The notes under the pieces were generated by a model. That model did not search any database. It was given only the letters and a program-made list of their open reading frames with translations, and had not been told where the DNA came from. From the NCBI GenBank assembly GCA_038890745.1, contig JAWAFD010000005.1, positions 1-64,000 of the forward strand: a stretch of 64,000 nt of DNA, written 5' to 3'. This stretch comes from Candidatus Anstonellales archaeon. GTDB lineage: Archaea > Micrarchaeota > Micrarchaeia > Anstonellales > J096. Within the stretch, counting starts at the first letter, position 1; every line of letters begins with the position of its first letter. The position numbers and the translations under genes are program-made. Of this stretch, positions 14,352 to 34,095 are shown one piece after another.

Positions 14352-14439
14352 ATTACATTCAATATATGGAGAAAAGGAGGCCCATTCATTAGGCGAAATA
14401 TTTTTAAGGTTAGGATGAGTATATATCAAAGGTGAAAAC

Positions 14440-14646: not shown

Positions 14647-14648
14647 AT

Positions 14649-14921: not shown

Positions 14922-15020
14922 TGTACCAAACCCCTCTAAGATATCTAATGTGGGTTAAAGCAAAACTTAGGTTAGGTTAAATAATGTTCTAGATGATGTC
15001 TTCCGTGCTCTATGCTACTT

Positions 15021-15552: not shown

Positions 15553-15574
15553 TTATTCTCTCATAAAGAAAAAA

Positions 15575-16431: not shown

Positions 16432-16494
16432 TTAGGAGCAGGTAGGGGATAGGTTTTTAACTATTTCTTAGCATATTATAATTAGTGTATTAGT

Positions 16495-17076
16495 ATGATA
16501 GTAGATGGAAAAACGAGAGAGTTTGGATTTACCAAGAAATTTAGGGAATTTGCTAGAAACTTAGGATTTAAAGGAAGGGATGTTTTGGTTGCTGGAATAA
16601 TCGGAACTGGAATTTTATCTGGCAAGGCTGGAGCCCAGCAGGCAGATTCTTTAGTTATAGATACAAGCTCTGTTCATATAGATTCTACTTATATAGACTG
16701 GAGTAAACCAAGGTTTATGGGATTGACTTATGGTTATTATTATGATTGGTTTAAAGTAACAGGAGTGGCTGCTTATCGTCTTTATATGGAATATGGTATG
16801 AGCTATTCTGATGCGTTAACGTGGCTCGATAGTGTTCAAACAGCAGGGTCAATCAAGACTTTCCCATATAACCAACCCCAAACAAGAGAGGATACAATTA
16901 AAACGATAATTGATTATTTTAAGTTGCACTACAATTTATTCCCCAAGAGTGATACTGAACTTGAATGGTACATAAAAACTCACCCAAATAAGGCTGAGCA
17001 GATAAAAACAGATTGGTACATAATACGAAATAGTCCTTATTGGCCTTATCTGGTAGAAGTTGGAAGCAAAAGATAA
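16495..17076 (+). CDS. B3: variable partner protein with signal peptide, convergent with cassette C3
   Basis: Shared promoter block at 16445-16460; charged n-region then VLVAGIIGTGILSGKAGA; TREDTI motif; overlaps the C3 3' end by 31 nt. Confidence 0.8.
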   Translation: MIVDGKTREFGFTKKFREFARNLGFKGRDVLVAGIIGTGILSGKAGAQQADSLVIDTSSVHIDSTYIDWSKPRFMGLTYGYYYDWFKVTGVAAYRLYMEYGMSYSDALTWLDSVQTAGSIKTFPYNQPQTREDTIKTIIDYFKLHYNLFPKSDTELEWYIKTHPNKAEQIKTDWYIIRNSPYWPYLVEVGSKR

Positions 17077-17637
17077 ATAGCAAGCGAATTTCTATTTAAA
17101 TTTTCCAAGATATTTGTTGCGGATTGTAAAGATTTCTGTTTTCCCTTAGCGCCCTCTACAGCAGTTTGGTAATACTTTTCAGAAAGTTTTTCTAATTGTT
17201 TTTTTTCTTCGTCACTATATTGTTCTGTTTTAAAGAATAATAATAGTGCAATTTTAGCATCATCTTTTTCAAAGTTACCTCCACTAGCAATAACAAAACC
17301 AAGTATATCCCGACCCCGTTGCAACCTATCCTCCTCACTCATTGTAGATGGGTCTTGTTGAATAAATTCAAGAGTAGTAGTTACATTATTCAATCTTGTA
17401 TTATTATAGCTACTCAATTCAGCTATCAATTCCTTCATAGCTTTTTTATCTCCTTTAAGTGCTCTTTCTGTGAGAGTTAACAATTCTTCATCTTGGGTTG
17501 TTAATTCTTCTGGTTTTTTAATACGAACCTCTGTTATTAATGAAATAGCTTCTCTTTCCGCTCTATATTTCTCCGGATTCATATACGCATCCATCAATAT
17601 TTTTCTCGCCTCTCTTAACTCTCCTTCGTTCATCCCT
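17046..17637 (-). pseudogene. C3: alternative C-terminus cassette of gene A with short homology block
   Basis: Begins GMNEGELREARKILMDAYMNPEKYRAERE as in C4; homology stops at 17637 where J1 begins. Confidence 0.85.
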
Positions 17638-17945
17638 GCGGAACCCAGGGGAGGTCGTAGGAGGTTTTCTTTTGGCGACCTCCCCCATGTTCTACGATAC
17701 TCCCCACCCCCTCCGCAATCACGCTCGCATACGCTCGCTTGGGGATAGGTTTTTAAGCACTTAGGAGGATATTATAGTATATGGTGATAGGTGTAAAAGA
17801 GAGGAAGGATAAGGAAGTTAAGTTTTCTGATAAAATTAGGAGAAATTTTGAGAGGTTTAAGGATAAGGTTGAGGGATTGGGGAAGAAGGCAATTATTTTA
17901 GGTGGAGTTGGGATTGGAGTAGGTCTAGGGTGTGCGAGTGATGGA
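17638..17945 (+). repeat. J1 repeat copy 2
   Basis: Near-identical to 13018-13325. Confidence 0.95.
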
Positions 17946-18296
17946 ATTAGAACATACAATATAGGTAGTAGAACATACTATATCTTATCTACTTCTGAGA
18001 TCGAAAAAATGAGCATAGATGAATTAAGGGCCCATATTTATAAGGGTGCAACGACAAGAGACGATAGTATAACTTGTCTAGCCATGTATATGGCTGCAAG
18101 ATGGGGATCCATAATAGGGCATATACCGTTTGCTGATGAGTGGGGACGGATAATTCCAGAACCTACTCTTGAAGAACTACTGATAATAATGGGGGACGGA
18201 GCTGGAAACGACCAACCACCATACTACATTACAATACTCCTTGGATTATACGGTAGAACAAGTAGCGACGGTAGAACAGAGTTGGTTCCCAAATAA
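17781..18296 (+). CDS. B4: variable partner protein, convergent with cassette C2
   Basis: Same leader as B1 and B2; TRDDSI motif. Confidence 0.85.
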   Translation: MVIGVKERKDKEVKFSDKIRRNFERFKDKVEGLGKKAIILGGVGIGVGLGCASDGIRTYNIGSRTYYILSTSEIEKMSIDELRAHIYKGATTRDDSITCLAMYMAARWGSIIGHIPFADEWGRIIPEPTLEELLIIMGDGAGNDQPPYYITILLGLYGRTSSDGRTELVPK

Positions 18297-18336
18297 AAAA
18301 CAAATAAAGTAAAACTTTATTAATAACTATGTATGT

Positions 18337-19145
18337 CTAATATGCACACAGGATTCGAATTTTTAATTCCTTCAAACTTTTTGGTGGGCTAGAGTAGACA
18401 TCTCTAATGTCTCTTCTCTCGCTAGCAAAAGTAGCTTGGTCAACTCCAATGTCTCCTAATACTTTTGTAAAGTCTTGTAGGTTAAAAGTTTCTATGTTCA
18501 TCAAGTAGGGATATAATGTGGATATTTTATGCAACAGGTATGGTTCGAATTCGCCTCCTACATACAAACCGCGTAGTGTTGTTTTTTTGTCTTCTTCATC
18601 TAGATTTTGATAGTCAACATTTCCAGTTAAAACATTATAAGCAAGGTCATAGTCATGTGCTTTTTCTCTAAAGTAGTTCTGAAGTTCTCTGAGTGCTTTT
18701 TCATCTCCGTTAATTGCTCTATCAAGATCTCTTCTAAGCTTGATGTCTTTTTCATCTGTAAGTTTCTCAGGATCTGCTGTAAGTGTAATAGCCAATAATC
18801 CATATACTGTTTTTTCTGCCTTATATTTCTCCGGATTCATATACGCATCCATCAATATTTTTCTCGCCTCTCTTAACTCTCCTTCGTTCATCCCTAAACT
18901 TATTACATCATCTCCAATCCGTATGTTTCCTTTCCAAGCAATTGATAAGGAAGCTATTATTTGAAGTGTATTTTGCGCCTCTTCATACGGTTTGGCTTTA
19001 TCTATTGTTGCTTGGAGGTCTTGGTATTCTGGAGTTCCTTGCTGCACTGTAGGAAGTTGTTTTTTTGCTTCATTAGCGGCCTCTATAATTTTTGGGTCAA
19101 AGGTTCTACTTAATAAAAATGCTTGGTTTGTTTGCTCAGTTATTT
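18337..19145 (-). pseudogene. C2: 5'-truncated alternative C-terminus cassette of gene A
   Basis: 18834-19145 matches gene A 21748-22059; no upstream start codon; divergent C-terminus related to C4. Confidence 0.9.
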
Positions 19146-19198
19146 TTAGGAGCAGGTAGGGGATAGGTTTTTAACTATTTCTTAGCATATTATGGTAT

Positions 19199-19651
19199 AT
19201 GATGATAGGTGTAAAAGAGAGGAAGGATAAGGGAGATAAGTTTTCTGATAAGATTAGGAGAAATTTTGAGAGGTTTAAAGAGAGAGTTGAACTAAAAGTA
19301 AAAAACACATCACCAAAGACAGGAATCTTATTATCTGCTCTGTTATTTGGAGAGTGGAGTCTCGTCAGCCTAGATGGTATGAAGTCAGTCCTTGAAGAAT
19401 CTGACCCGATTTATGGTCAAGTTTTCACAGAACTCTGCGATAAGATCTACTCTCGATGCACTACGAAACAAGATAGTATAGACGTTGCAAGAGCTACACT
19501 TAAAGAAGCCACTGGAAGTAGCGATCCAGAGATGTGGGTAAAAGTTTTTAGTAATCTTCTCAGCAACAGTTTTAGAGATGGAAAATGTACAAACGAGGAC
19601 TTTAAGTTATTGCTAATATTTTATGCTACTATTCCATATGCAAGCCAATGA
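19199..19651 (+). CDS. B5: variable partner protein, convergent with cassette C1
   Basis: N-terminus MMIGVKERKDKGDKFSDKIRRNFERFK like B1; TKQDSI motif; overlaps the C1 end by 23 nt. Confidence 0.8.
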   Translation: MMIGVKERKDKGDKFSDKIRRNFERFKERVELKVKNTSPKTGILLSALLFGEWSLVSLDGMKSVLEESDPIYGQVFTELCDKIYSRCTTKQDSIDVARATLKEATGSSDPEMWVKVFSNLLSNSFRDGKCTNEDFKLLLIFYATIPYASQ

Positions 19652-20641
19652 TAGATTTAAGCCCAATGGCAGTAGAAACTGCGAAATAATATCCTATAAG
19701 TAGATTCTGTTTAAAATATACACTGCCCATCTCTTCTACTTTATTTTGTTTTTTATCTAGATCAGTAATAATATTGGCAAGATGTTCTGAACTTGGTCTG
19801 ATTTCTACGGATGGGAGTCTTATCCCATCTATCATGAAATTCGCTATCGACATTGCATAGTATGGGGCTACCCTATCAGAAGCCTCTTTATTACCCGTTC
19901 CTGCTTTATTAAAAATGTCTAAAGCTTTTGGCATTGCATTTTGTATAGCCGCGACTTCATCTTTGGTCAAATTATCTGATTTTTTTCCAACTTCGACTCC
20001 TGCGATCTCCTGAGCTAAAAATATCCGCGCATTAGTAGATATAAAGGTGGACAAAGTGGGCATAAGTATATTAAATTCTTGTGCTAACAAACTTATGCTG
20101 GCGTAATCAAGACCAATTAATGCCTTCTCTATCTCCTCCTGACTCGCTCCTTTTTCCAATAAATCTGCTATTTCTTTTGCTTTATCCGCCGCTCTCTCAT
20201 ACAAACTTATTTGTTCTCTTTTCCATTCCTCAAACTGTTTTTCATTAGGAAGTTTTCCTTCCCATTTAGTTAGATAAGCAGCATATAAGCTTCTTTCTAT
20301 TTCTGTTGCTGGCATTAGTTCTGACCAATCTTTTCCATATAAAGAGATTATCTTTTCTCTCGCTTCTTTTAGTTCTTTTTCATTCATCCCTAAACTTATT
20401 ATATCATCTCCAATCCGTATGTTTCCTTTCCAAGCAATTGATAAGGAAGCTATTATTTGAAGTGTATTTTGCGCATCTTCATACGGTTTGGCTTTATCTA
20501 TTTTTGCTTGGAGGTCTTGGTATTCTGGAGTTCCTTGCTGCACTGTAGGAAGTTGTTTTTTTGCTTCCTCGGCCTCTTTTAGAATTTTTGGGTCAAAGGT
20601 TCTACTTAATAAAAATGCTTGGTTTGTTTGCTCAGTTATTT
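19629..20641 (-). pseudogene. C1: 5'-truncated alternative C-terminus cassette of gene A
   Basis: 20383-20641 matches gene A 21801-22059; diverges after GMNE. Confidence 0.9.
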
Positions 20642-20654
20642 TTAGGAGCAGGTA

Positions 20655-20670
20655 GGGGATAGGTTTTTAA
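20655..20670 (+). promoter_or_regulatory. Conserved BRE/TATA-like promoter block GGGGATAGGTTTTTAA of the B genes (representative copy)
   Basis: Identical 16-mer at 13121, 15054, 16445, 17741, 19159 and 20655, ending 24-34 nt before each B start codon. Confidence 0.75.
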
Positions 20671-20704
20671 CTATTTCTTAGCATATCATAATTAGTGTAT
20701 TAGT

Positions 20705-21232
20705 ATGGTAGAAAAAGTTAAAGTAAGGAAACAGGAGGATGCTAAAGAAACAGAAAATAGAGCGGGTATTTTTGAAAGGTTTAAAGATATAGTGGAGAGA
20801 TTTGGAAACAAGGCTTTAATTGCTGGGGTTCTTTTAGGTGGAGGTGTTGGAGTAGGAAAAGGATTCAGTATAAACGAAGGAGCTACATCTAGGCAGGATA
20901 GCATTAAAATAGAACTTGAGTTCTGGTTAGGATACGTTGACGCTTTCCAAACCTTTGGTATCGATGGAACCATAGTTAACCCTGAATTGGCGGATGAGAT
21001 ATATAAAGATGCTTCAACCAAAAGCGATAGCACTACACAAGCAATAAATTTTTGGCTTAGGGAAACAGGGCAGGTCCCATACTCAAGTATAGATGTTTGT
21101 ATAATGCTCAAGATACTGGCCACGATGGATTGGGAAGACTTAGCAACTTTCAGCCAATATGCGCAACGAATTAGCGATGGATGGCTATTAACTCAACCCT
21201 ATCTTAACAAAGAGATTAATTCAAATCGTTAA
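20705..21232 (+). CDS. B6: variable partner protein, convergent with full-length gene A
   Basis: FERFKD..E.FG.KALIAGVLLGGGVGVG leader; TSRQDSI and STKSDST motifs; overlaps the A stop by 12 nt. Confidence 0.85.
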   Translation: MVEKVKVRKQEDAKETENRAGIFERFKDIVERFGNKALIAGVLLGGGVGVGKGFSINEGATSRQDSIKIELEFWLGYVDAFQTFGIDGTIVNPELADEIYKDASTKSDSTTQAINFWLRETGQVPYSSIDVCIMLKILATMDWEDLATFSQYAQRISDGWLLTQPYLNKEINSNR

Positions 21233-23539
21233 TAGTAAAATCTTTGTTTTAAAGTTCATAGGATTTATTCCTTGATCTATTTTTTTCTTGTTATTGTCAA
21301 TCTCCAAAGTAAGTTTGGAGTTTTGCTCCTTTATATCCTTCACTACTTGTTCTTGTACCTGAGGATTCGAGTCCAAAAACTGCATAGTGAATAGTATTTT
21401 ATCTTCAATAGTTGGGAATTTTTTTACCTCATCTTGATATTCCACTCCACCATATTTATAAGATAGCGCAACAATATTACCAAAAACTCGGGATGTGGTT
21501 GCTTTATCAAAGGAACTTATATCACCACCTTCCAAAAGCGTTAGTGCAGCATTATACGCGAGTAAACGTCTCTCTTGCTCTAGATACAGTTGATTCCTAA
21601 CTCTTTCCAATGCTTTCTCATCTCCACTTGCCGCTTTTATTATATCCTCTCTCAGTTTCTTATCCTCATCTGTTATTTGTTTTTCGGGCGTTCTTAATGC
21701 AACAATAATTGGTGCAAGCAAACTTTTTTCGTCTTTATATTTCTCTCGATTCATATACGCATCCATCAATATTTCTCTCGCCTCTCTTAACTCTCCTTCG
21801 TTCATCCCTAAACTTATTATATCATCTCCAATCCGTATGTTTCCTTTCCAAGCAATTGATAAGGAAGCTATTATTTGAAGTGTATTTTGCGCATCTTCAT
21901 ACGGTTTGGCTTTATCTATTTTTGCTTGGAGGTCTTGGTATTCTGGAGTTCCTTGCTGCACTGTAGGAAGTCGTTGTCTTGCTTCATTAGCGGCCTCTAT
22001 AATTTTTGGGTCAAAGGTTCTACTTAATAAAAATGCTTGGTTTGTTTGCTCAGTTATTTCGGCAATGAATTTTTTTCCTTCTTCTGTGCTTAACAATTCT
22101 TTATCGTTTACTATTTCTGAACAAAGACCAAAAGCTCTTGAGAGTTGGGTGTATAATTGAGCTTTTGCTTCGTCTTCTTCTGCTTTTGCTGATGCCCTGT
22201 ACAACTCTGAGAGGTTTGAGTAGATTGCCTTTTTATCTTTTGGATCTACTTCCTTTCCTTCTAAAAGCTTTTGGAGTTCGGATGAATTCTCTGTTAGGTA
22301 CTTTAGCTGCTCTCTTGCCGCTCCTCTCATTAGTCCTCCCACTATTGCCTCAGAGACACCAAAAAATTCAGCTAATGAAGCAATATTTCCACGTGCAAAA
22401 CCAACCATCAAAGCCGCTGAAAATATCTGGCTTACACCAAACTGTCCTGTTGCTATTGCTACTCTCTGCTGGCCTGCCCTTAACTCACCTCCTCCGCCCC
22501 CCTCCTTCACTTTCTTTCCTGTCCAGAACCTCCCTTTTCCAACTCCTCTTAATCTTTCTTCTACTATTCCCATATTCTCCGCTATCCATGCTGGTCTTCC
22601 TCTTATCAACCCTTCTTTTACCCTACCGGGAAGAATTTTTGTCGCAATTCCTCCCATTGCTTCAACCGCTTTGGTAGCTGCTCTGGTTGTTACAGAGACG
22701 CCTTTTTCCACTGCTTCAACAGCTTTTTTAATAAAAGAAACTTTCTTTCCTAACTCAACTGCTTTTCCGCCAAGTTTTTTTGCATGTGGGGCGACCTTAG
22801 CCACGACCTTAGCCTGTTGCAGAGTAATCCCTCCCTTCCCTGTTATTCTTGCTCTTTGGCCTGTAATAAATCTTAAAGTATTCAGATCAAACCAGAAAAA
22901 TGGGCTTCCACCAGTGGCATAGGAAGCAGCGAGAAGCATGCCTGCGATTATAAAAAGAGGTAAGCAGATTGCAGGTGCGGTTCCTCCAAAAAGAGGAGGA
23001 AGGAGTGTTGGGATGTAAACGACTTGGGCATATGTTGGGGAAAGGGTTGCAAAAATAGGCTGACCATTTTTATTTATGTATGCTGACTCAGGCCATGGGG
23101 CTGGTTTAAACCCTCCGCATGGAGAAACATCTTCAAAAGAGGTTATACTTTCGTTTAGGCAGGGCTGGAGAAGGCAGTTTGGAGAAGAGGAGCAGCAAAA
23201 CTTTACACCTATCGTACACCCCCTTACCATCCCTGTTCCTGAGCATGTTTCGTTATAAGGTGTTAGGTCAAAAACCGCTTTTCCATTCTCATTTGTAAAA
23301 ACCCTGCACCTAGAATAAAGGTCACCAGTTGCATTATACACTTCAATAAATAGGGTTGCGTTCCCAACAGGAAGCCTTTCTCCATTATAAACGGCATACA
23401 TGTATATATCTACATTTTTTTCAACCAAACCTGCAATAATCCCGGATTCATAAGCATTAAAAAGCTCCTCACAGCCAGGGCAGGGAGGCTGAGAGAAAAG
23501 CAAACTCATAAAAAATAAAAGAAAAAATACTTTTCTCAT
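21221..23539 (-). CDS. Gene A: 772-aa membrane protein with exchangeable C-terminal domain (putative expression locus)
   Basis: Signal peptide, Cys-rich domain, TM helix, basic linker, second hydrophobic segment, conserved block ITEQTNQAF...MDAYMN repeated in the cassettes, unique C-terminus. Confidence 0.9.
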   Translation of the reverse strand: MRKVFFLLFFMSLLFSQPPCPGCEELFNAYESGIIAGLVEKNVDIYMYAVYNGERLPVGNATLFIEVYNATGDLYSRCRVFTNENGKAVFDLTPYNETCSGTGMVRGCTIGVKFCCSSSPNCLLQPCLNESITSFEDVSPCGGFKPAPWPESAYINKNGQPIFATLSPTYAQVVYIPTLLPPLFGGTAPAICLPLFIIAGMLLAASYATGGSPFFWFDLNTLRFITGQRARITGKGGITLQQAKVVAKVAPHAKKLGGKAVELGKKVSFIKKAVEAVEKGVSVTTRAATKAVEAMGGIATKILPGRVKEGLIRGRPAWIAENMGIVEERLRGVGKGRFWTGKKVKEGGGGGELRAGQQRVAIATGQFGVSQIFSAALMVGFARGNIASLAEFFGVSEAIVGGLMRGAAREQLKYLTENSSELQKLLEGKEVDPKDKKAIYSNLSELYRASAKAEEDEAKAQLYTQLSRAFGLCSEIVNDKELLSTEEGKKFIAEITEQTNQAFLLSRTFDPKIIEAANEARQRLPTVQQGTPEYQDLQAKIDKAKPYEDAQNTLQIIASLSIAWKGNIRIGDDIISLGMNEGELREAREILMDAYMNREKYKDEKSLLAPIIVALRTPEKQITDEDKKLREDIIKAASGDEKALERVRNQLYLEQERRLLAYNAALTLLEGGDISSFDKATTSRVFGNIVALSYKYGGVEYQDEVKKFPTIEDKILFTMQFLDSNPQVQEQVVKDIKEQNSKLTLEIDNNKKKIDQGINPMNFKTKILLLTI
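21748..22059 (-). repeat. A-repeat: ~312-bp coding block shared with the cassettes
   Basis: Copies at 18834-19145, 16120-16431, 20383-20641 (partial) and 17576-17637 (short), all in direct orientation. Confidence 0.95.
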
Positions 23540-23574: not shown

Positions 23575-26500
23575 CTAATCATCAATCCAGCAATCCGAAA
23601 CCCTTGTTTTAAGAGGAACGTCAAACCCGCAGAAATTCGCGTATGTGCTTCCTCTTACGCATTCCTTGCTCTCATTTCCCGAAGTAGAGAATAGGATAGG
23701 AATGGGTTTTATGGAGGAGGACTGAATCGATAAGAATGTTTTTGTGTTGTCCGCAACACAAATTTTTGGAAGCCCTTTTATAGAAGCAATTAGGTCTGAA
23801 TACAAAGATGGCTCTGCCATCACATCCTGCAAAGGGTATTCCTCAAAAGAATACTTTCCTGCGCTGTAAACCCGACATTTTAGATTTCCAGAATAGGGAG
23901 GGGAAATACACATCTCTTTTACAACACAACCCTCTGGCCATTTCTGATTTCCAGAATATCCAGAGCACTGAAAACCAGTAAGCGGGTCGCCCAAATAATA
24001 CCCATTACAAACACCTCTAAGAATGTCGACCTCATCACATTCAACGCAGACGCACTCCTCGGAAACCTCGGCTTCGCTAACAAACGCATATGGGGTAAGA
24101 CCTGATGAAATCTCAGCAGAGGATTCAACAGAACAGTAATCCTGCATATTTAAAGACGAGCCATCTGAGATGCTGAAATCAGAGAAATGCATCCCAATTA
24201 TCCCTGAATTAACAAACCTTGCCCTTTGATAGGCAAGGTAGTTGAACATTCCATACTTATCTACAGGAGTGTTTACCTCTCTGATCATTAGCAGGGATGG
24301 CTTCCCGAACCTAGAAACAAGTTTTCTTGAAATGTTGTTTAATTTTTGAACAACGTATTCGTAAAACTTTATTTTTTCCTCTTCATTGTTAAGCGGAATT
24401 TTTGGGTTTATTTTTACTTCAACAATAAAAAGGTCTGAATTTTCCATAAGGGAATTGCATTGCTGCCCTGCAAAAGTTCCTTCCCTGGCACAGAACTCCT
24501 CTCCCGCTAAATGGTCTGACATTTCTAAACCATACGCACTGTCAAAATTCTCAAGGAAAGACCTTTCAGAGTTTATATCCTGCGAATCAATGCCGGTTAT
24601 GGTAATCTCACCTGAAAGCGCAGGCATACAATAGGGGCATGGTTCCTTAACCTCCATTGCCCTCTTCTCTAAATTTATTTCATAGTTGTTTCTTTCTTTT
24701 GCATTCCCTATAACAACAATTATCGGCCCCAAAGAGGATGCAGATTCTTTGTAATCGCCGGCATGGTTTCCTTGGTAGTCATCTGCGGCATAAAGCAGGC
24801 TTACGTATATATCGCGAAGGAGTTTGTATGCAAATGTTGCATCCTCTTTGTAAACCGTGCGCTCAGGTTCATAGCAGCTATCGCATCCATAGTAAGTTTT
24901 GTAAAGCTCATCATCTTCGGCATAAAGAACTGGCATAACCCCTGAAAATAGATAAGAAGTAAGCTTTCCTTTCATGTATTTCCAGTGAGGATAGAAATCA
25001 GGCCAGGAAACACGGGCATCATAGACATCACCATCTTGTCTTGTCGCATCCTTGCAGCCAAAAGCTAAATTGTAAGCATCGCACCTAAGCTGGTCATCAC
25101 GATGCCCTCCACACGCAACCCTTGCATCAACACTACCAGTGGAGATAACACGCCCGTTTTCATAAACCTCTCCAACAGTTTTTCCCTCCCACTCATTTGG
25201 GTTTCGCGCATTCAGGTTTGAGGGTGGCAGGATCTCAAGGAGAGGGCAGTAGTTTGCTATTCTTTTGTTTATTTCATTTGTAGTATCAGCCTCGTAATCA
25301 TTCTTAAAATCTTCATAAGGTCCTTCTGGATAATCCGCAAGGTCTATTCGCGCTATTCCATTATTTTCAGAAATGGGAAGATCTTCGCTATTCGGGTCTC
25401 CGCCAGTCGGGTCATAGAATTCGTTTAATGGGTAAAGATGCTCAACAGCAATTGTGTTGAAGGTTGCAGGCTCGCACCATCCATATTCCTTTACAACTAT
25501 GTTGCCCATTTCATCGGTTAAGCAGTTTCCAAAATTTCCATCCTTATTTTTTCTTATTACTATTGCTGCGGATGCATACGCGCTGCATTCGCCATCCTCT
25601 CCCTGAGAGACGCAAAAATCATCATCTGTTAAACCAGAGCATATTTCTCTCCAATTTTCACCCATGCTCGAACCATCCAACCCGAATTTCGGGGGATAGC
25701 ACACGGCGATATCATCTTTGTATTCTTCGCTCATGCAGTTTTCTATAAAATTCACAACATACGTCCCTCCTTCCTGGCATCCACTCCAGGTGGTTGGAAC
25801 AATCTGGCAGTAATGAAGAATTGCCCATCTCGTTGGCTGGTCGTTCGGAAGAGGATAGTTCACAATCGGGCCGAGTGTTGAGCTGACGTCCCTTGAAAGG
25901 AATATCATAATCTTCCCATTGCTTATCTTTCCTGAAACCGGTGAAGGAGGAGTAAACAACCATTCTTCTGTTTTCAGGGATGCTCTACTCACTCCTAGAG
26001 TTTCCCCATCCCACATATCCACACTATTTTTTGGTTCATCTGAAGCAGGAACAGATTTTGTTCTTGTTGGGTTGCAGGCAACAGAGCCATACTCGTAGGA
26101 ACAGCCGCACTCAACACCTTTGTTTGTTGAAGCATGTATGCATACACTCCTTTTGTAAACGTTATTTCCACAAACCCCAGAGTAGCACTCAAACCCGCTC
26201 TCACATTCAAACTCTGCTTTTCCACCCTCAAAAATCTGTGAGGCATAAATCGTGTGTCTAGGAAGAACGTTTGCATAATAGGTTGGAATTTCCTTAAACC
26301 CAAAAATTCCAACAGTTGCAGCAGTCAACCCGGTTCCTTCTTTTGCGAATTTTAAAACCCCGACATTTGCTGTTCTTCCATCGTTCGGATATTGTAATTC
26401 AACCTCTCCCTGGCTCCAGAAAGTATTTCCTCTACCAGCTGCGCTCTCATCCTCAACATCTGCCCAGAAAAGCCCTCCGTACCAGTGCTTCACAGAACCC

Positions 26501-27267
26501 GGCTCATCCCCGAAAGGAGAGTTTGGAAGGGAAAGGGATTGGGTGGGGGAGGAGCAAACCATTGCTGGGTTTATCCCTCTGCATTCCCATTCGCACTCAT
26601 AGTAAGAGGAGTATTCTTTGCCGTTTTCTGTGCAGGAATAAGCGCCATTTGTTTGTTGGCATTTTTTTTCAGCAAAAAAATAGTTTGAATACCTATCTTT
26701 TGTTCCAGTGTAGGAATTTAAGACCTTATCTGAGAGCGGGAAGAGGTACCGGTAAGTATCGTATTCCTCAAAGCTTTCTCCGATTCCAAACCTAAAACTA
26801 TTCAGCATAAGCCCTTTGCTCATCGCGCTTTCAACAGAAGGGGTCATTTTCAAAACATCGCATTCTGCATGCAGAAGGCCAAAAACAGCTCCTTGGCCTG
26901 TTGGAAGTTCTATGTTTCCCTTCTCAACATCCTCATGGCTTATGAGAAGGGGAATGCCTATCTTTCCAAAATCACCGCAGAGCATTCCAGAGCATCCCTC
27001 AACACAAGATTTTACCTCCCATTCTGAACAAACAGAATAGTTGAAATCCTCAACCTCACAGAAAATAGGCTCATCATTTTCTTTCCATACTTTACAATCA
27101 TCTTCACCAGTATAGCTAGGGTCTTCTGCGAGCTTGTCCGCAAAATAGCATTTATCGTTTTGAGCATATTTGTAAAGGCAGCAGTGCGCCTCTGGTTTCT
27201 GGAAGCAACCAACCATAAGAAGAAGCGCAAAACCCAAAAACAAAATAAATAATTTTCTTACTTTCAT
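23575..27267 (-). CDS. Large Cys-rich secreted or lipoprotein surface protein (1230 aa)
   Basis: MKVRKLFILFLGFALLLMVGC lipobox-like signal; many Cys; acidic composition. Confidence 0.8.
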   Translation of the reverse strand: MKVRKLFILFLGFALLLMVGCFQKPEAHCCLYKYAQNDKCYFADKLAEDPSYTGEDDCKVWKENDEPIFCEVEDFNYSVCSEWEVKSCVEGCSGMLCGDFGKIGIPLLISHEDVEKGNIELPTGQGAVFGLLHAECDVLKMTPSVESAMSKGLMLNSFRFGIGESFEEYDTYRYLFPLSDKVLNSYTGTKDRYSNYFFAEKKCQQTNGAYSCTENGKEYSSYYECEWECRGINPAMVCSSPTQSLSLPNSPFGDEPGSVKHWYGGLFWADVEDESAAGRGNTFWSQGEVELQYPNDGRTANVGVLKFAKEGTGLTAATVGIFGFKEIPTYYANVLPRHTIYASQIFEGGKAEFECESGFECYSGVCGNNVYKRSVCIHASTNKGVECGCSYEYGSVACNPTRTKSVPASDEPKNSVDMWDGETLGVSRASLKTEEWLFTPPSPVSGKISNGKIMIFLSRDVSSTLGPIVNYPLPNDQPTRWAILHYCQIVPTTWSGCQEGGTYVVNFIENCMSEEYKDDIAVCYPPKFGLDGSSMGENWREICSGLTDDDFCVSQGEDGECSAYASAAIVIRKNKDGNFGNCLTDEMGNIVVKEYGWCEPATFNTIAVEHLYPLNEFYDPTGGDPNSEDLPISENNGIARIDLADYPEGPYEDFKNDYEADTTNEINKRIANYCPLLEILPPSNLNARNPNEWEGKTVGEVYENGRVISTGSVDARVACGGHRDDQLRCDAYNLAFGCKDATRQDGDVYDARVSWPDFYPHWKYMKGKLTSYLFSGVMPVLYAEDDELYKTYYGCDSCYEPERTVYKEDATFAYKLLRDIYVSLLYAADDYQGNHAGDYKESASSLGPIIVVIGNAKERNNYEINLEKRAMEVKEPCPYCMPALSGEITITGIDSQDINSERSFLENFDSAYGLEMSDHLAGEEFCAREGTFAGQQCNSLMENSDLFIVEVKINPKIPLNNEEEKIKFYEYVVQKLNNISRKLVSRFGKPSLLMIREVNTPVDKYGMFNYLAYQRARFVNSGIIGMHFSDFSISDGSSLNMQDYCSVESSAEISSGLTPYAFVSEAEVSEECVCVECDEVDILRGVCNGYYLGDPLTGFQCSGYSGNQKWPEGCVVKEMCISPPYSGNLKCRVYSAGKYSFEEYPLQDVMAEPSLYSDLIASIKGLPKICVADNTKTFLSIQSSSIKPIPILFSTSGNESKECVRGSTYANFCGFDVPLKTRVSDCWIDD

Positions 27268-27276
27268 TCTCTCCCC

Positions 27277-28233
27277 CTAAACCAATTTTGAGACCATTGA
27301 GATGAATGCTGTTGGCATCCCACCAAGTATGACTGTTGCAAACCTTATAAAAACAAAGGAAAGGGAAAGGGCTGCGAGGTTTCCAAGTAAAATCTGGTAG
27401 AAAACAGATGCCATGAAGTCCTGCATTGATTTGTGTTTTATCCCCATCTGGGCTGATTGCATGGAGAACCTGCTAAAATCCAAATCAAACCCTCTTCCTA
27501 TGCTCAAATAGGTTGGGTAGTTGCAAACGGTTTCAGTTTCGAGCATAGGGGATTTTGGAGGGGCAACAAAACCCGATGAGGCAATCCATAGAACAGATGG
27601 GTAGATGTAGTAAAGAGCAATTGCTATTGAAATGAACAGAGCACCAAGCCCACGGGTAAGCTTCATTGCGCGGAGAACTATTCCAACTGGAAGGAATATG
27701 GAGAGCATGTACTTTGAGATGTAATCTAGAACGTAGTATTGCGCTGCTAGGAAAACAGAAAGCTCTGTTCCTTTTTGTGTAAGGAACTGAACTTCAGAAA
27801 CTCTTCTGTATATCGCCTCCCACCATCCCCCCTGAAAAATGGGGATGCCATACCATCCAAGATAGATTGATGAAAGTGGCATGACCCATCTCGCATCAGA
27901 TGCTGCTGAATTCAGCACATCCTCCATTGATGCGAGCATGAGGAGCGTCTGCTCTTTTGACTGCTCAATCGCAAGAATGTTTATCGGACCCGGAGTTTGC
28001 GGGGGTGTAAGAAGGGTTGAAATCCCATTCAGTATGAAAACAAGGAATATTATACCCAAGGCAACTGCAATATTGTCTATTATTTCAGCAATGGCAATCG
28101 TTTGCCCCCTCATGTCCATGAACATTTTCGCGAACATGTAATGGATTACTTCTATAAAAAATAGTATGAGCACTGAGAGGATTGCAACAATCCCCCAGTT
28201 TGTTTCCCAATCAGCAAGAAAATCCACCATCAT
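27277..28233 (-). CDS. Multi-pass membrane protein, paralogue 6 (VirB6/CedA-like, inferred)
   Basis: Shared motif FLPVGIVLRAMKLTRGLGALFISIAIALYYIYP. Confidence 0.75.
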   Translation of the reverse strand: MMVDFLADWETNWGIVAILSVLILFFIEVIHYMFAKMFMDMRGQTIAIAEIIDNIAVALGIIFLVFILNGISTLLTPPQTPGPINILAIEQSKEQTLLMLASMEDVLNSAASDARWVMPLSSIYLGWYGIPIFQGGWWEAIYRRVSEVQFLTQKGTELSVFLAAQYYVLDYISKYMLSIFLPVGIVLRAMKLTRGLGALFISIAIALYYIYPSVLWIASSGFVAPPKSPMLETETVCNYPTYLSIGRGFDLDFSRFSMQSAQMGIKHKSMQDFMASVFYQILLGNLAALSLSFVFIRFATVILGGMPTAFISMVSKLV

Positions 28234-29315
28234 ACCATCCTCAAGAATCTTGCGATCTCTATTTCCTCCCCAAGGAATTTTCCGAGAGCGATTATTCCAG
28301 CAGAGGTGCCTATGAAGTTCAATGAAAGCAGGAATGATGAGATTAAAAAGCTTATCGCACCGTATGTAAGCAACCTATCAAGAGAAACCGAGCAGACAGA
28401 GCCGTGCTGTGGTGGGCTGAGGTTTTTGCACAAATATATTTTTCCATCATGCTCCTTGAAAAAATAATCAAACTGCCCGAATAAGAATATGTTCCAGTCA
28501 AGCCCTCCCTTAAAGTATGGGTCTTTTTCATCTATGTTCAACCCTCCTGGGGATGTCAAGTAGTGGATCTCATTTTGATTATCATATCCCCATTTTTCAG
28601 GCCTGAAAACAAGCCCTTCTATAACAAGAAGGGTAGGGAAGAAAACAATGAAGCCGGCTCCTATCGCAAGCAGAACACCCCCAACCCTTCTTGCAAAAGG
28701 TATAGATCGAAGGACAAGCCCAAGAGGGATGATAAGGAGGAAGCCCCCATTCATAAAAGAGCGCAACAGATATTTCTGCGAAAGAATGGTGAGAAGAGAA
28801 ATTGTTGTTGTGTACGCCTGTGCGTTAAGAACGGCTGAAATCAAAGATGCCCACGCATCAGGGTTTAACCCAACCCCTTGGCCTGCGAGGAAGCACCAAA
28901 GGCTTTTACACTCGTATTTCCATACTGAAGAAATAAATCCTGCCATCATATTGTATATCCTTGTCATACGCATGGTGTTGTGCACATAGATACTCATGTT
29001 ATCAAGGTAAGCATCTGCAAAATCGTACATACACATATCTCCCTGCACTGAAAACCCTGTTAGTTCGGAAAGCACGGAAACATTGTAAATTGTTCCAAGA
29101 TTGAGGAAGCTGAGGATAAAAACTGAGATGAGAGTTGAGAAAAAAAGCTGTGGAATCTCATCATGCGCCCAAACATCCAGTTTTGGGTTGTTTGTTATTT
29201 TTCCAATCATGTAAATTATTGAGATGATTATTGCAGAGGAAGCGATGCCTATGGCCATGGCTGTGTACACAAAGCCCATGTTCAGCATCTCAGGAGTAAA
29301 TGTTGTACAGGTCAT
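28230..29315 (-). CDS. Multi-pass membrane protein, paralogue 5
   Basis: IIPLGLVLRSIPFARRVGGVLLAIGAGFIVFFP; start MTCTTF at 29315 gives an ATGA overlap with the upstream gene. Confidence 0.75.
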   Translation of the reverse strand: MTCTTFTPEMLNMGFVYTAMAIGIASSAIIISIIYMIGKITNNPKLDVWAHDEIPQLFFSTLISVFILSFLNLGTIYNVSVLSELTGFSVQGDMCMYDFADAYLDNMSIYVHNTMRMTRIYNMMAGFISSVWKYECKSLWCFLAGQGVGLNPDAWASLISAVLNAQAYTTTISLLTILSQKYLLRSFMNGGFLLIIPLGLVLRSIPFARRVGGVLLAIGAGFIVFFPTLLVIEGLVFRPEKWGYDNQNEIHYLTSPGGLNIDEKDPYFKGGLDWNIFLFGQFDYFFKEHDGKIYLCKNLSPPQHGSVCSVSLDRLLTYGAISFLISSFLLSLNFIGTSAGIIALGKFLGEEIEIARFLRMV

Positions 29316-30334
29316 GCTATCCTCTCCAACTGCGCCAGCACAAAGGCGTACACCTCTGCGCCAAAGGCTTTTGAAGACGCACCTATCAGGGAGATGAGGA
29401 CTAGAAGGGAAATCCCCTCTGAGAACATGGATTTTACGAGCGCAAGGAAAACAGGACCGGAATAATCTGCGTTTATCATTGTTTCTGTCGCCTCCATGGC
29501 GTCGTACACCGGGTCTGCAGAACCGCTGCGACCCATGTTCGTTGCCTTGCACTCAATTTTGGATGTGTCCACATTTATAGCCGGGTTGAGAGCGTTGATG
29601 TTTTGATACTCTGTGGAAACCCCATACATGAAAACAATCATAAGCGGGTAGACAAAATAAAGCCCGAACGCAAGGGAAAGCAAAAACCCTCCCAGCCCCC
29701 TGCTTATCCCAAAGCATCTCATAAATATCCCAATCGGAAAAACAATCAAGAGAACAAAATCAGGGGTAAGCTTAAGGAGGAATATCTGGGAGCTTGTTGT
29801 TGCAATGGAAGCGCCAACTGTAGCTGCGTACATGCTGAGTGGGCTGGAAAACGCACTGAAGCCCATGCATGGGTTGATGCTGAAACCCATGTACACTCCT
29901 TTGCAATAGAAATCCTTTGTGGATTCCTTACTAATGTCTTTTGAAACTGCTGCTATCTGGGTTAGGAGGAGTGTCTGCTCAGAGAGAAGCCTTTCGCTTA
30001 TGTCTATTGCGAAGTTTATGTGCTTGGGTGTTGGAACTGCATTAAGATTCTCATTCGGGAACCAATAGGAAGCAGCCCCTGCGGAAAACTGATCTATGAT
30101 CGCAACCGCGAAAAGGAAGAGGGAGAACATGGCAAGGGTTGCGATCCACTCGTACGCCTCATGCTTGGCTGCAAGCTTCAGTCCCTCGCTCTCAAAAGCT
30201 ATTCCGACCGCGTACACAACACTAATGAGTAGGGCTGCGATGAGCATCGCAAGAATGGAGGAAACCTCCCAGTTTTCTGGCTGGGCTGCAAAGGAAAGAG
30301 CAAACATCAACAGGAGGAATAATATTTTTCTCAT
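29312..30334 (-). CDS. Multi-pass membrane protein, paralogue 4
   Basis: Signal peptide; VFPIGIFMRCFGISRGLGGFLLSLAFGLYFVYP. Confidence 0.75.
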   Translation of the reverse strand: MRKILFLLLMFALSFAAQPENWEVSSILAMLIAALLISVVYAVGIAFESEGLKLAAKHEAYEWIATLAMFSLFLFAVAIIDQFSAGAASYWFPNENLNAVPTPKHINFAIDISERLLSEQTLLLTQIAAVSKDISKESTKDFYCKGVYMGFSINPCMGFSAFSSPLSMYAATVGASIATTSSQIFLLKLTPDFVLLIVFPIGIFMRCFGISRGLGGFLLSLAFGLYFVYPLMIVFMYGVSTEYQNINALNPAINVDTSKIECKATNMGRSGSADPVYDAMEATETMINADYSGPVFLALVKSMFSEGISLLVLISLIGASSKAFGAEVYAFVLAQLERIA

Positions 30335-32055
30335 AAAAGCTCACCCAAACCAGGAACGAAAAGCTCCCCTCCTAAAAATGAGGCAAGCCCTGAGATGAAA
30401 ACTATTGTTGCAGCTATGTTGAAAAGCGGAAGGAGGTAAGCGCTTATCATTATTTTCGCAACGTTTTCAACAAAACGAATGCCCGTGAGTGCTCCCCGGG
30501 AGGAATGGGTCTGGGTCGGAATTTTTGTGGCGCAATGCTCCTCGCATTTTGCAAAAACAGGTGGATTGTAGGAAAAGCCTGGATCATCAAAATCAAGAAT
30601 GGCTTTGCAGTCAGCCTTTCCCATATCCTCATGTATTATGTAAACGCTCGTTTGCTTAGCTGCATTAATCATTCCCTCCCTGTTCTCAGCATAAAAACTC
30701 GTGTTTGCATTCTTCCATATCCGCCCTGGATTTTGCGGATAGTAGCTTTCGCATCCTGACTTGAATGTACTATAGTTTATATGATCATAGCAGTAGGAGG
30801 TTCCATTTGTATAAACCGCCATGCAGAAAGATGGGCAGTACTCGGATGAGGAGGGAATGGAAAAGGGTGCAACAACCCTACACCTTGAATCAACGTTTTT
30901 CAATTTTTCATAATCAGGTTCAAGAACAACCCTGGTCAAAAAGCATTTTTCTCTTGTTTTAAAAATTTCCGAGCAATTTTCTTTCACATCCGCGCAAAAA
31001 GGATTTTCAAATGGATAGGGAAGAACACGGCAGAATGAAGGGCAGGTTGGTGGATAGTCGCAGGAGCATACACCGCCAAAACATTCTTTACTTCCATTAT
31101 ATATTCCTTCTAACTCCTCATTCGTCCATTCATTCTCCCGCGCAATTTGTATGAGCTGCAAATATGAGATTGAGTGTGTTGAGTTGTAGGCTACGGGTGA
31201 AAACATTTTGCATTCAAGAGGGCACTGCTCACCAAAGTCATACCCTATATCAGTAGAGAACCTGTTTTCTGTTATTGCGAAAGTTAGCAGAAACATCCCG
31301 GGAAAAACAACCATCGCCCCAAACCCAACAGCAATCAACGTTCCTCCCCATCTTCTAGTGAGGAAGAAAGAGCGAAGGATAACTCCAGTAAGTATGAAAA
31401 AAGGCCCAAGGACAAATGCCATGTTATCCAAGAAGAATTTCTCGGCTAGTAAAAGGGAGTAGGCAGAGCTTAAAAAATCCATCAAAACCTGATCCCTTAT
31501 AAGATAAATGGAAAAACCACTAGATATACTTAAGCTACCATAGAGGTAAAACCACCATCCAGGCTCGTCTATCGTAGAACTGGTATCCCCACCAAACCCT
31601 AATGATGAGGAAGAAATTTTGCCCCAAGTTATCGCATCAAAGTATATCTCTTCAGCAATTCTTCTTACCTCCTTTATATACCATCCCAAATATTCAGAGG
31701 CGCTTCCTGCTACGCAGTTTCCCTGCGCGCATGGAATTACCTGGGATGCAAGCGCATCCAAAAAACCGATGAAAGCAATTATAAAAATTACTATAAGCGC
31801 ATTTATGAATATTTCTCCAAGCTCTATCTTTCCCCATGCCTCAAGCTGGGAAAGCCCAAAGGATTTTCCACCAACTATGGCGAATATCGCAACCATGAGT
31901 GAGATAAGGATGAGAAGAAGAGAAACGAGTTGCCAGTTTGAGAGGACTGCTGAAACAAAGGTTGTTTGCGGAAGATTTTCGAGTGCCTGAGTGTATGTGG
32001 GCAGCTGGGCAAAAAGCAAAAGAACCAGCAGCAAAAGAATAAATATCTTTTTCAT
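30331..32055 (-). CDS. Multi-pass membrane protein, paralogue 3, with large Cys-rich loop
   Basis: FILTGVILRSFFLTRRWGGTLIAVGFGAMVVFP followed by a Cys-rich insertion (CPLEC, CPSFC twice). Confidence 0.75.
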   Translation of the reverse strand: MKKIFILLLLVLLLFAQLPTYTQALENLPQTTFVSAVLSNWQLVSLLLILISLMVAIFAIVGGKSFGLSQLEAWGKIELGEIFINALIVIFIIAFIGFLDALASQVIPCAQGNCVAGSASEYLGWYIKEVRRIAEEIYFDAITWGKISSSSLGFGGDTSSTIDEPGWWFYLYGSLSISSGFSIYLIRDQVLMDFLSSAYSLLLAEKFFLDNMAFVLGPFFILTGVILRSFFLTRRWGGTLIAVGFGAMVVFPGMFLLTFAITENRFSTDIGYDFGEQCPLECKMFSPVAYNSTHSISYLQLIQIARENEWTNEELEGIYNGSKECFGGVCSCDYPPTCPSFCRVLPYPFENPFCADVKENCSEIFKTREKCFLTRVVLEPDYEKLKNVDSRCRVVAPFSIPSSSEYCPSFCMAVYTNGTSYCYDHINYSTFKSGCESYYPQNPGRIWKNANTSFYAENREGMINAAKQTSVYIIHEDMGKADCKAILDFDDPGFSYNPPVFAKCEEHCATKIPTQTHSSRGALTGIRFVENVAKIMISAYLLPLFNIAATIVFISGLASFLGGELFVPGLGELL

Positions 32056-32966
32056 TGCACACCACCAAACGAGAGTGCTCTCCTTATCGCATCTATGGAG
32101 CTTATGGTGATTGCGAGAGCTATATTAGGGAAAAGTATTGTGTAAGGAAAGAACTTTGCAAACGCAATAAACCCATTCGCTTCGCAGCCACCAAAAAATG
32201 GGTCGCTTGCAACAGCGGAATTGCACGGAATGGAGATGCTATCATAGCTTACTGCAAAAACAGAGTAGGAGAATGGAAGGAGGATGTAGAAAGAAAAAAT
32301 AATCCCGAGAAGGATGTTCCCAGCCTCCCTTGCCTGCGGAACGAGCCGCGCCATGACTGCGAATGGTACGCTCCACGGAACGATCACATCCAAAGCAAGC
32401 TCAAACATTATTCCCTGCATCTTTGCTGAAAGAAGGAGCATGGAAAGAAGGTTTATGAGAATCTCAATCTGTGAGGCAACAATCTCCCTCCAATAATTCG
32501 TGTAAAGTACAACCCCACTTCCAGAAAAGTCGTACCTTCCAGCGTATACAGAAGAGAGGATGCGGTAGTCGAAATAATCGCTGTACAACGTTCCTATCGT
32601 ATTCTGGAGCTCGTTCTGCATTTTTGAAAAAAAGTTTTTTGAGTACTCAATTGGGTTATGAATTCCAGCGTACGCTGAGAGGTAGGAAGAAAAAATGGTG
32701 CAGCTTCCTATGAATATTCCCTGGATAAGCAAAAGCATTAAAACGGTTATAATTAGGTGGGAAAGTTCCTCTTTAGCAAGGACAATGAAGTTTGGAAAAT
32801 GAAACGCAGAGCCGATTATGTAAACTATTGCGATAAGAAGGGCTGCAATCCCAACAAGTACCATAAGCACATCCCACCAGAAGTTATCCATTCCTGTTGT
32901 CGGGTCGCATACATTCTGAGCAAAAAGCAGGGAAAATACCATGAGTAAAAAAAATGCTTTCTTCAC
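32052..32966 (-). CDS. Multi-pass membrane protein, paralogue 2
   Basis: Probable GTG start at 32966 (VKKAFFLL signal); SVPFAVMARLVPQAREAGNILLGIIFSFYILLP. Confidence 0.72.
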   Translation of the reverse strand: MKKAFFLLMVFSLLFAQNVCDPTTGMDNFWWDVLMVLVGIAALLIAIVYIIGSAFHFPNFIVLAKEELSHLIITVLMLLLIQGIFIGSCTIFSSYLSAYAGIHNPIEYSKNFFSKMQNELQNTIGTLYSDYFDYRILSSVYAGRYDFSGSGVVLYTNYWREIVASQIEILINLLSMLLLSAKMQGIMFELALDVIVPWSVPFAVMARLVPQAREAGNILLGIIFSFYILLPFSYSVFAVSYDSISIPCNSAVASDPFFGGCEANGFIAFAKFFPYTILFPNIALAITISSIDAIRRALSFGGVQ

Positions 32967-32970
32967 CCCA

Positions 32971-34095
32971 TCACCCTGTAAACCTTGAAAATCCATACAT
33001 GAAAAATTCCCCTCCCAGTGCAATCGAGATGGAGCGGTAGGCACTAACCACTATAAGAGTGACTGAAACGAAGAATATTGTAAGCGTTGTGCTCAGCTCG
33101 ATCACTGCTGGAATGAAAACGTCCATAACAGGAACGAAAACCTCCGGAACCGTACTCATGAATTGAAACTTTATTACTGCCGTAAATTGCAATACGGCCA
33201 TAAGAACAAATGCAGCACTGTACAGGAAGTCAACTATATGTTCGCATACGTTATAGGGAAGAAGCCAGAAAAGCGGGATGCATATCGCAACATCGTAAAC
33301 AAAATCCGTCGGTTGGACAAATGACTGAAATAATGGCGAGCATACAACTGGTGCAAACTTACTAATCCTCATAGGGTCTGGAATACTGCGATCCATTGAC
33401 ATTTCCTCAATATTATTCACAATCTCATTGTAATGAGGCATGGAAACTGCGACATCAAGAAAATCCCCGACAACAACAACCGCAGCAGGAAGAACTATGG
33501 CTGCTGAAAGGGCTAATGCGATCAGGGTCGCACCTATTTTTCTTGTTCCCGGCATAAGCCTGAACGCAAATGCAATGGGCATGAGCCAGTCCTTTGCTAT
33601 CCACGCTGCAAATGGGATTAAGATTTTCAGCGAGACAATCGCAAAATAGAATGTGGAAAGAACATTTCCTATTCCATGGAGAGAAGAGGAAACAGGACCA
33701 AGCCCACGAAATGGCGCCTGACCCATATTAAGCTGAAAAATTGAGATGGGAATGGCTATATTGTAGCTTAGGCCGGCATACTGCCCTACTCGTGTGAGAA
33801 CAGCGGAATACTGAACAAATAAAAATTTTGTTTTGTTTTCAAATTTTTCCAGCAAAGAGCCAGAAAAGTCCCCCACATTTTCATAGCCTGTGTAGGTTTT
33901 TATGAGTGAGTCTATTGAGTTTAGCATCCCAAAAATTATTATGAGGAGCAGGATTCCTGTTATGGTTGCCCTCACCTCCTCTTTCACTTTCGCATCGAAC
34001 TGAGGGTTGTTCAGAATTCCGGCGAGCATGAACCCAAGTGCTATCACAAGAATCGAAATGCCTATGATCGCAGGTAGGCAAAAGAATGGGTCCAT
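32971..34095 (-). CDS. Multi-pass membrane protein, paralogue 1
   Basis: Start MDPFF at 34095; LMPIAFAFRLMPGTRKIGATLIALALSAAIVLP. Confidence 0.72.
   Translation of the reverse strand: MDPFFCLPAIIGISILVIALGFMLAGILNNPQFDAKVKEEVRATITGILLLIIIFGMLNSIDSLIKTYTGYENVGDFSGSLLEKFENKTKFLFVQYSAVLTRVGQYAGLSYNIAIPISIFQLNMGQAPFRGLGPVSSSLHGIGNVLSTFYFAIVSLKILIPFAAWIAKDWLMPIAFAFRLMPGTRKIGATLIALALSAAIVLPAAVVVVGDFLDVAVSMPHYNEIVNNIEEMSMDRSIPDPMRISKFAPVVCSPLFQSFVQPTDFVYDVAICIPLFWLLPYNVCEHIVDFLYSAAFVLMAVLQFTAVIKFQFMSTVPEVFVPVMDVFIPAVIELSTTLTIFFVSVTLIVVSAYRSISIALGGEFFMYGFSRFTG

Follow-up and report, generated by a model that had tools for sequence, protein, structure and literature searches.

The stretch analysed here, referred to as the window, comprises the first 64,000 nucleotides (nt) of contig JAWAFD010000005.1 (C5, beside contigs C1 to C4) of the 990-kb, 93.8% complete genome of Candidatus Anstonellales archaeon, labelled G000, of the phylum Micrarchaeota; the sequencing runs that contain this DNA are hot-spring metagenomes from a single study, with no RNA run listed among them. 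On the minus strand of the window lie six consecutive paralogous genes for VirB6/CedA-like membrane proteins, m1 to m6, followed by the gene of a large Cys-rich predicted lipoprotein, a gene here called A, and a set of A-tail cassettes, with which convergent B genes of the plus strand are interleaved. The six paralogues, numbered by their position or slot in the array and recognized from open reading frames (ORFs), alignments, a shared motif and slot-specific clades, are m1 (32971..34095, 374 residues), m2 (32052..32966, 304 residues, with a GTG start and a signal-peptide-like N-terminus), m3 (30331..32055, 574 residues, its motif hairpin being followed by a 20-Cys insertion), m4 (29312..30334, 340 residues, the subunit chosen for modelling), m5 (28230..29315, 361 residues) and m6 (27277..28233, 318 residues).

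The ORF calls agree with an earlier note on this DNA, which had described six consecutive same-strand genes with four ATGA junctions, then a 1230-residue Cys-rich gene and A. Stop and start codons overlap at m2/m3, m3/m4, m4/m5 and m5/m6, and the remaining gaps are 4 nt between m1 and m2, 9 nt between m6 and the lipoprotein gene (23575..27267), and 35 nt between the latter and A (21221..23539). Housekeeping genes flank the array, as judged from the ORF list and a Pfam scan of the window, and a promoter scan of this archaeal DNA with bacterial-type models gave results at chance level. The Pfam scan, which covered 28 window proteins, assigned no family to m1 to m6, the lipoprotein, A or B.

Within the set, pairwise alignment to m1 gives 15-27% identity. 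As the earlier note had noticed, the N-terminal helices of the six are similar, in every case forming a hairpin of two helices that contains a conserved Glu; a long helical middle, an R-x5-R-x2-G-x14-P hairpin and a C-terminal helix follow. The motif P.[GA]...R.....R..G..[LF]...........P, previously ascribed to all six, occurs in strict form in five and in relaxed form in all, the first Pro being replaced by Leu in m3. The strict motif matches eight ORFs of the genome, every one a family member, against a mean of 0 in 20 shuffles of all 3332 ORFs.

Slot identity and spread of the family

The genome encodes 13 family members, arranged as two six-gene arrays and one singleton (C1:82157-83080); the second array (C1:232511-239086) is followed by genes for a 1555-residue A homologue and an 808-residue Cys-rich lipoprotein. 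The family extends across the phylum, being present in 135 of 151 Micrarchaeota genomes (a tally that includes the unpublished genome G029 as a tally row only), among them all 49 other genomes of the order, and at E<=0.001 a family profile retrieved 3,798 cluster representatives. In families f9 and f10, each of five single-contig genomes possesses one array region and one singleton region. Six tagged members are seen in 59 of 71 array loci, and several of the other 12 end at region or contig borders or have an untagged member. The 16 genomes of the tally in which the family was not found belong to f12, f16, f18, f19 and f20 and include most of f13; if this absence is real, the machine was lost there, and lifestyle may differ.

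Slot order is fixed. A FastTree phylogeny (225 members, 260 columns) separates the type-I array into six slot clades, each with 17-18 of 18 members. Support for the union of a slot between the two array types is 0.97-1.0 for slots 1, 5 and 6, and 0.8-0.9 for slot 3. On the evidence of this tree, the six slots predate the array duplication and have been neither homogenised nor reshuffled, as expected of distinct subunits in one complex. The six slot-specific clades in fixed order lend indirect support to the heteromeric channel that the earlier note had proposed; co-assembly is a further step, and by this comparison of sequences the six subunits probably form one heteromeric complex. A complex prediction for m4, m5 and m6 with orthologue alignments scored 0.13 against a mark of 0.32 and is evidence neither way. 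In 40 of 42 complete arrays linked to the lipoprotein, slot 3 is longer than 550 residues and contains a large insertion rich in Cys, the maximum being 1455 residues and 111 Cys.

Motor and pilin genes and the probable kinship with VirB6 and CedA

In other families the arrays are co-located with genes for pilin-like, small membrane, VirB4-like and coiled-coil proteins. Two small membrane genes follow all eight arrays fetched from f9, f10 and f11, with a tagged VirB4-like ATPase in six of the eight; the small membrane protein, considered as a VirB3 or a split VirB4 N-terminus, matched only coiled coils in the PDB, and one of 19 members matched a VirB4 model (E 2e-4). In all three f11 genomes with an array, the run continues through a coiled-coil gene, a gene for a protein of ~800 residues, a gene for a Cys-rich protein of 2,500-3,100 residues, and an A homologue; a fourth f11 genome shows the last three genes of this run. 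The giant f11 Cys-rich protein gave no match to the profile of the window lipoprotein. For the pilin preceding the array of genome G102, the best score is to TrbC/VirB2 (E 1e-4) and stays under the gathering threshold. In f11 a single locus unites array, motor, pilin and A; in the window genome they are spread over contigs. A VirB4-type ATPase and a VirB2-type pilin are co-encoded with orthologous arrays (f9, f10, f11) and with the genome's own singleton, and lie in trans to the window array.

The scan of the 28 window proteins is consistent with the earlier statement that the window has no VirB4/CedB-type ATPase; genome-wide Walker-A and phmmer scans place such ATPases only on C1, C2 and C3, with an ordinary HerA on C3, and a check run for VirB4/HerA-like ATPases and pilins found candidates of both kinds on other contigs. 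The singleton operon encodes, in order, an 81-residue pilin-like protein (T4SS_pilin, E 0.014, below the gathering score), the family member, a 261-residue membrane protein, a 477-residue ATPase whose best NCBIfam match is CedB (E 6e-28; next, VirB4 CD1110), and a coiled-coil protein. A second motor block (C2:64097-70063; L137) comprises genes for a small membrane protein, a 522-residue ATPase, a 133-residue membrane protein, a coiled coil and an 804-residue protein, and two tandem pilin-like genes lie at C4:74543-75096 (L135); the C2 block and the C4 genes are likely the in-trans partners of the arrays. The two ATPases match CedB/VirB4/CedD at E 1e-19 to 1e-28, yet with 68-98 bits against cut-offs of 325-700. 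Pilins align to the family at its N-terminal hairpin, at E 2e-9 for the G102 pilin and 0.002 for the genome's own pilin, not significant among 2378 small ORFs. The relaxase and coupling families PF02534, PF03432 and PF08751, the only ones of their kind searched with working positive controls, were not found in the 93.8% complete genome, and thus the relaxase plus VirD4 on a mobile element that define a conjugative type IV secretion system (T4SS) were not seen among these three families; a search with PF13814 was uninformative, no control having matched either.

The minimal operon around the singleton occupies C1:81888-85998 (L003:7889-11999). Within 2 kb downstream lies an ORF (C1:86893-87651) that is presumably DprA-like; such a neighbour would suit DNA uptake, and this separate pilin/channel/ATPase operon looks more like a Ced-type DNA importer than the arrays do. 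Just downstream of the singleton operon at L045:14843-17197, and at the equivalent f9/f10 loci, is a gene for a HerA-like ATPase of ~750 residues (HerA_C, E 3e-4), a possible CedD counterpart.

Structural comparison points in the same direction as gene context. The AlphaFold2 model of m4 is of high quality (predicted local distance difference test (pLDDT) 90.7, predicted template-modelling score 0.85), and in a wide search of 48,161 chains its first-ranked match was R388 TrwI/VirB6 (Z 8.1, root-mean-square deviation (rmsd) 3.6, 161 residues aligned), a score below the value of about 13 under which, by the tool's warning, helical bundles may share a mere common arrangement. The second-ranked match was the Legionella DotA-IcmX protochannel (Z 7.4), DotA being presumably the VirB6 counterpart there. 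The R388 stalk (PDB 7o3v, 8rt9, 8rtd) and DotA-IcmX (9ngy) are only 9-13% identical in sequence to m4, and each is a homo-oligomer of one gene product, in contrast to the six different genes of the array. Foldseek placed R388 stalk chains at ranks 2, 3, 6 and 7 (E 0.014-0.026), a CedA model matched the singleton (E 0.016) and, over the motif, m4 (E 1.5e-4 for one genome), and one ESM Atlas cluster carries the name CedA1-domain (23% of 78 members, score 0.88), which is a lead only.

Several results, beyond the tool's warning, count against so specific a kinship. An unrelated protein reached Z 7.1 in the same search, and Foldseek returned nothing at E<=0.001, its top row being a designed helical repeat. 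The CedA model (NF041796) scores 20-27 bits against a curated cut-off of 330, the same search also gave a match in the Bacillus subtilis control, and one of 27 scanned family members matches it at E<=0.05 (an orthologue, E 4e-6); TrbL/VirB6 gave no Pfam match, and a 150-sequence family profile found no match among PDB sequences. Solved VirB6 stalks are, moreover, pentamers, a poor simple fit to six slots. Operon context together with the modest fold and profile lines nevertheless makes kinship with VirB6/CedA likely. The VirB6/CedA-type channel suggested by the earlier note is therefore favoured by fold rank and by its neighbourhood of pilin and VirB4-like ATPase genes, each line being modest and the CedA profile matches weak, and with considerable confidence the array can be called a T4SS-derived membrane core.

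The lipoprotein, gene A and the B cassettes

The predicted lipoprotein (1230 residues, 55 Cys) was characterized by homologue alignment, modelling and fold searches. Of the 49 other genomes of the order, 46 encode it once. At 45 of 47 distinct lipoprotein loci, the 1.2 kb upstream include a family gene in the same orientation; about two thirds of the loci were chosen by lipoprotein match and the rest by array matches, and one exception is a contig end. Four weak matches from elsewhere (E 3e-4 to 9e-4) were set aside as noise of Cys-rich sequence. Gly20-Cys21 does not vary among 14 homologues. Residues 745-1230 were modelled (pLDDT 77.9) as a predicted glycoside-hydrolase-like (beta/alpha)8 barrel, which aligns with glycoside hydrolase family 53 at Z 12.6 and rmsd 3.9 over 208 residues; the top 50 structure matches are glycosidases or glycosidase-like by title, with a best Foldseek E of 3e-4. 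A profile of the C-terminal half found no match among PDB sequences, the ESM Atlas returned nothing for the barrel, and Pfam nothing for 12 homologues. With strands numbered provisionally from known motifs, 45 homologues have no conserved Glu where strands 4 and 7 presumably end, the two positions of the catalytic pair in clan A, so that a glycan-binding or structural role appears likelier than hydrolysis. The 808-residue lipoprotein of the second array has a weak match to SLT transglycosylase (E 8e-4), and two lipoproteins of that type in family f17 match the profile of the window lipoprotein.

Gene A (772 residues), delimited by profile and topology comparison, encodes a signal peptide, a Cys-rich outer domain, a single membrane helix, a basic motif and a hypervariable tail. 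Its anchor family, defined by the first 300 residues, is found in all 49 other genomes of the order, with >=2 matches in 47, and in five of six f11 genomes. Among 43 arrays directly followed by the lipoprotein, A is next in 25 and divergent upstream in nine; the linkage of array and A homologues that the earlier note had anticipated in other genomes is thus conserved at loci throughout the order and in f11. Because Cys residues precede the single helix and basic residues stand just after it, the tail, 560-2,000 residues mostly without Cys or further helices, is predicted to be cytoplasmic. Tails are hypervariable, with six matching pairs among 22 sequences, all from close relatives. Pfam found nothing in seven A homologues except Cys-repeat matches in one, and no toxin domain in A tails. 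Membership of A in the VirB6/TraG family in cryptic form was rejected (hhalign of the N-terminal 300 residues against the family, probability 0.5%), and a basic C-terminal secretion signal was not supported (34 A tails versus 205 other ORFs, p 0.08). In the second-array region (C1:232511-246089; L001:4512-18090), the 1555-residue A homologue ends in a small Cys4 motif.

Downstream of A on the minus strand (13671..20543), tblastn, blastp and direct repeats delimit five orphan A-tail cassettes, at 19629-20543, 18337-19047, 17046-17633, 15575-16177 and 13671-14675. Six B genes on the plus strand (13161..21232), recognized as ORFs, by profile search and by pairing, are each convergent with an A tail: 20705-21232, 19199-19651, 17781-18296, 16495-17076, 15094-15552 and 13161-13667. 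Families of direct repeats up to 300 nt long and 70-100% identical frame the cassettes between 13018 and 21964, and each of the six B genes has a 36-nt element ahead of it. Similarity between A3 and A5 mirrors that between B3 and B5, and in genome G162, of the same genus, a tail 55% identical to A6 is paired with a partner 50% identical to B6. These comparisons suggest that A tails and B types pair up and travel together, as cognate partners or by plain co-duplication. Pieces of the cassettes are connected in different orders on contigs of sequencing runs X2, X3 and X4, and one such contig joins the unique part of A to cassette 5 sequence; depth in run X1 is 41 to 64 over the cassettes and 62 for the operon.

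Orphan tails lie downstream of A in the window and were found at none of 20 further A loci, each examined over the 1.2-16.8 kb that follow. B matches only the window genome among the 151 genomes, and only this genome and G162 among 19 of the family; in G130, also of the genus, the contig stops inside the repeated stretch of A. The proposal that A and B set the specificity or cargo of the channel is consequently not supported as a general rule, B and the cassettes being found only in this genus. Orphan tail-plus-partner cassettes downstream of a full gene are also a feature of polymorphic toxins, as with A/B. The entry-exclusion pairs TraG/TraS of F and TraG/Eex of SXT/R391 (PMC7690428) join a variable C-terminal determinant to a small cognate partner that blocks transfer from like cells, and the TraG/Eex analogy of the earlier note may apply in this one genus, where the pairing looks cognate. 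TraG itself is a VirB6 homologue, whereas profile comparison does not connect A with the family; B, moreover, runs convergently on the other strand, and A/B are chromosomal and genus-limited. Two orphan ORFs elsewhere (C1:81087-81851 and C1:252445-252885) have the B-like build of a basic N-terminus and one hydrophobic stretch and are unmatched by the B profile, possibly forming with B a wider class of small exported proteins. At the far end of the cassette array (10352-12960) are two divergent AAA_14/DUF4143 ATPase genes.

A candidate cell-contact machine

The best reading of these data, and a fairly probable one, is a chromosomal T4SS-derived cell-contact conduit with a six-subunit membrane core of VirB6/CedA type. 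Six non-interchangeable subunits would co-assemble, one per slot, as the platform for pilin extrusion, with VirB4-like ATPases as motor and, like the pilins, supplied in trans from other contigs. The Cys-rich loop of slot 3 and the lipid-anchored pseudo-glycosidase would together face outward and attach to the glycosylated exterior of a partner cell, whether host or kin. A would be a single-pass component, its conserved anchor docking on the machine and its likely cytoplasmic hypervariable tail serving as the partner-specific part or as cargo; in this genus the tail may be exchanged by recombination among cassettes, each with its own B as a likely cognate guard for immunity or exclusion. That A and the lipoprotein are physical parts of the machine seems reasonably likely. 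It is close to an even chance that the machine contacts another cell for the transfer of macromolecules, more probably protein than plasmid-type DNA, and a cognate A tail and B acting through the machine is a tentative suggestion at most.

Several features count against this reading. Neither the lipoprotein nor A is universal: the lipoprotein was found only in the order Anstonellales, and the A anchor in none of 46 f9 genomes and none of 25 f10 genomes. Since B and the cassettes are genus-limited, A/B cannot be the general specificity device of the machine; their pairing could be mere co-duplication, and the reordered cassette joints are seen in short-read contigs that cross repeats, from one study. 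In the slot tree, cross-array support for slot 4 is 0.107, and f9/f10 slots 1, 2, 4 and 6 cluster apart.

The closest known systems give rise to the strongest rival. Ced of Sulfolobales and Ted of Thermoproteales are described as DNA-import systems built from CedA/CedE/TedA, CedA1/TedC and CedB/CedD (PMC9905601, PMC11823120, PMC11868833), and the six subunits could analogously be a channel pulling chromosomal DNA from kin, for repair and recombination, or from a host, for nucleotide supply, with A/B as accessories. Like the proposed Micrarchaeota system, Ced and Ted are chromosomal archaeal T4SS derivatives with a VirB6-like channel, a VirB2-like pilin, two VirB4/HerA-type ATPases and no relaxase found, the absence here referring to the families searched; the best ATPase matches are CedB and CedD, two VirB6 paralogues of Ced, CedA and CedE, have been proposed to hetero-oligomerise (PMC11868833), and the resemblance of the CedA1 pilin to the CedA N-terminus (PMC9905601) has a possible counterpart between pilin and channel in the Micrarchaeota family. 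Ced/Ted possess one or two channel paralogues, whereas this genome possesses 13, profile scores fall far below cut-offs, and the Micrarchaeota system, known from its genes, adds the lipoprotein, A and small membrane proteins; two six-gene arrays, huge Cys-rich outer loops and a hypervariable partner exceed what Ced needs, and the separate minimal operon fits the job better. DNA import by the arrays is accordingly judged improbable.

Less probable still is an organelle for adhesion only, in which a T4SS-derived pilus base and a surface cap hold the host and nothing is transferred. The glycan-binding-type barrel predicted without catalytic residues and the slot-3 surface loops with up to 111 Cys would suit this role, and surface-exposed extended VirB6 paralogues are described in Anaplasma (PMC7648143); a variable part of A on the predicted cytoplasmic side would be needless for an adhesin, and the cognate-looking B genes also speak against it. 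The same source reports tandem virB6 arrays in Rickettsiales, with four copies in Anaplasmataceae and five in Rickettsiaceae. There too, a host-dependent cell has diverged virB6 paralogues in tandem and in conserved order; virB3/virB4 are adjacent, and some paralogues have long extensions exposed at the surface. Rickettsiales are bacterial diderms, whereas the Micrarchaeota array belongs to a monoderm archaeon and has six slots, an internal Cys-rich slot-3 loop and duplicated copies, and the two kinds of array are, by this analogy, most likely convergent. An unrelated helical membrane scaffold that resembles VirB6 by chance helical-bundle match would account for the weak structural and profile scores, and is very improbable because independent families repeatedly place these genes in operons with VirB2-like pilins and VirB4-like ATPases, because T4SS channel proteins took the first two ranks of the m4 search, and because pilins align to the N-terminal hairpin of the family, as published for CedA1/CedA (PMC9905601).

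Patescibacteria, an epibiont lineage, also rank among the closest known systems: they possess a relaxase-free chromosomal T4SS whose virB6 is cited as essential in strain ML1; that system is bacterial and MPF-FATA-related, and the available part of its description mentions no six-gene VirB6 array (PMC12102498). In nanohaloarchaea, VirB4-bearing giant proteins have been proposed as secretion channels (PMC10266531). In a Micrarchaeota co-culture, tomography is reported to show a 21-nm barrel, so far unassigned, in the envelope of the symbiont where nanotubes make contact (PMC11329633). A literature search by title and abstract found no VirB6/CedA array in Micrarchaeota, with most subscription journals, and supplements that may list such genes, outside its coverage.

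An extended form of the conduit reading, which is unlikely, would make it a hetero-hexameric T4SS host-contact organelle in which A is a tethered polymorphic effector, its tail passed into the contacted cell, swapped among cassettes and neutralised in kin by B. If true, this would be the first molecular account of how DPANN archaea engage hosts and discriminate kin, together with a T4SS core of six different VirB6 subunits. What this locus newly contributes is the link of the array to A/B, and partner specificity becomes approachable through the switchable A tail. Six fixed, different VirB6 subunits would, if real, extend T4SS architecture, and a machine found in 135 of 151 Micrarchaeota genomes supplies named candidate genes for the attachment of DPANN archaea to their hosts and for host exploitation.

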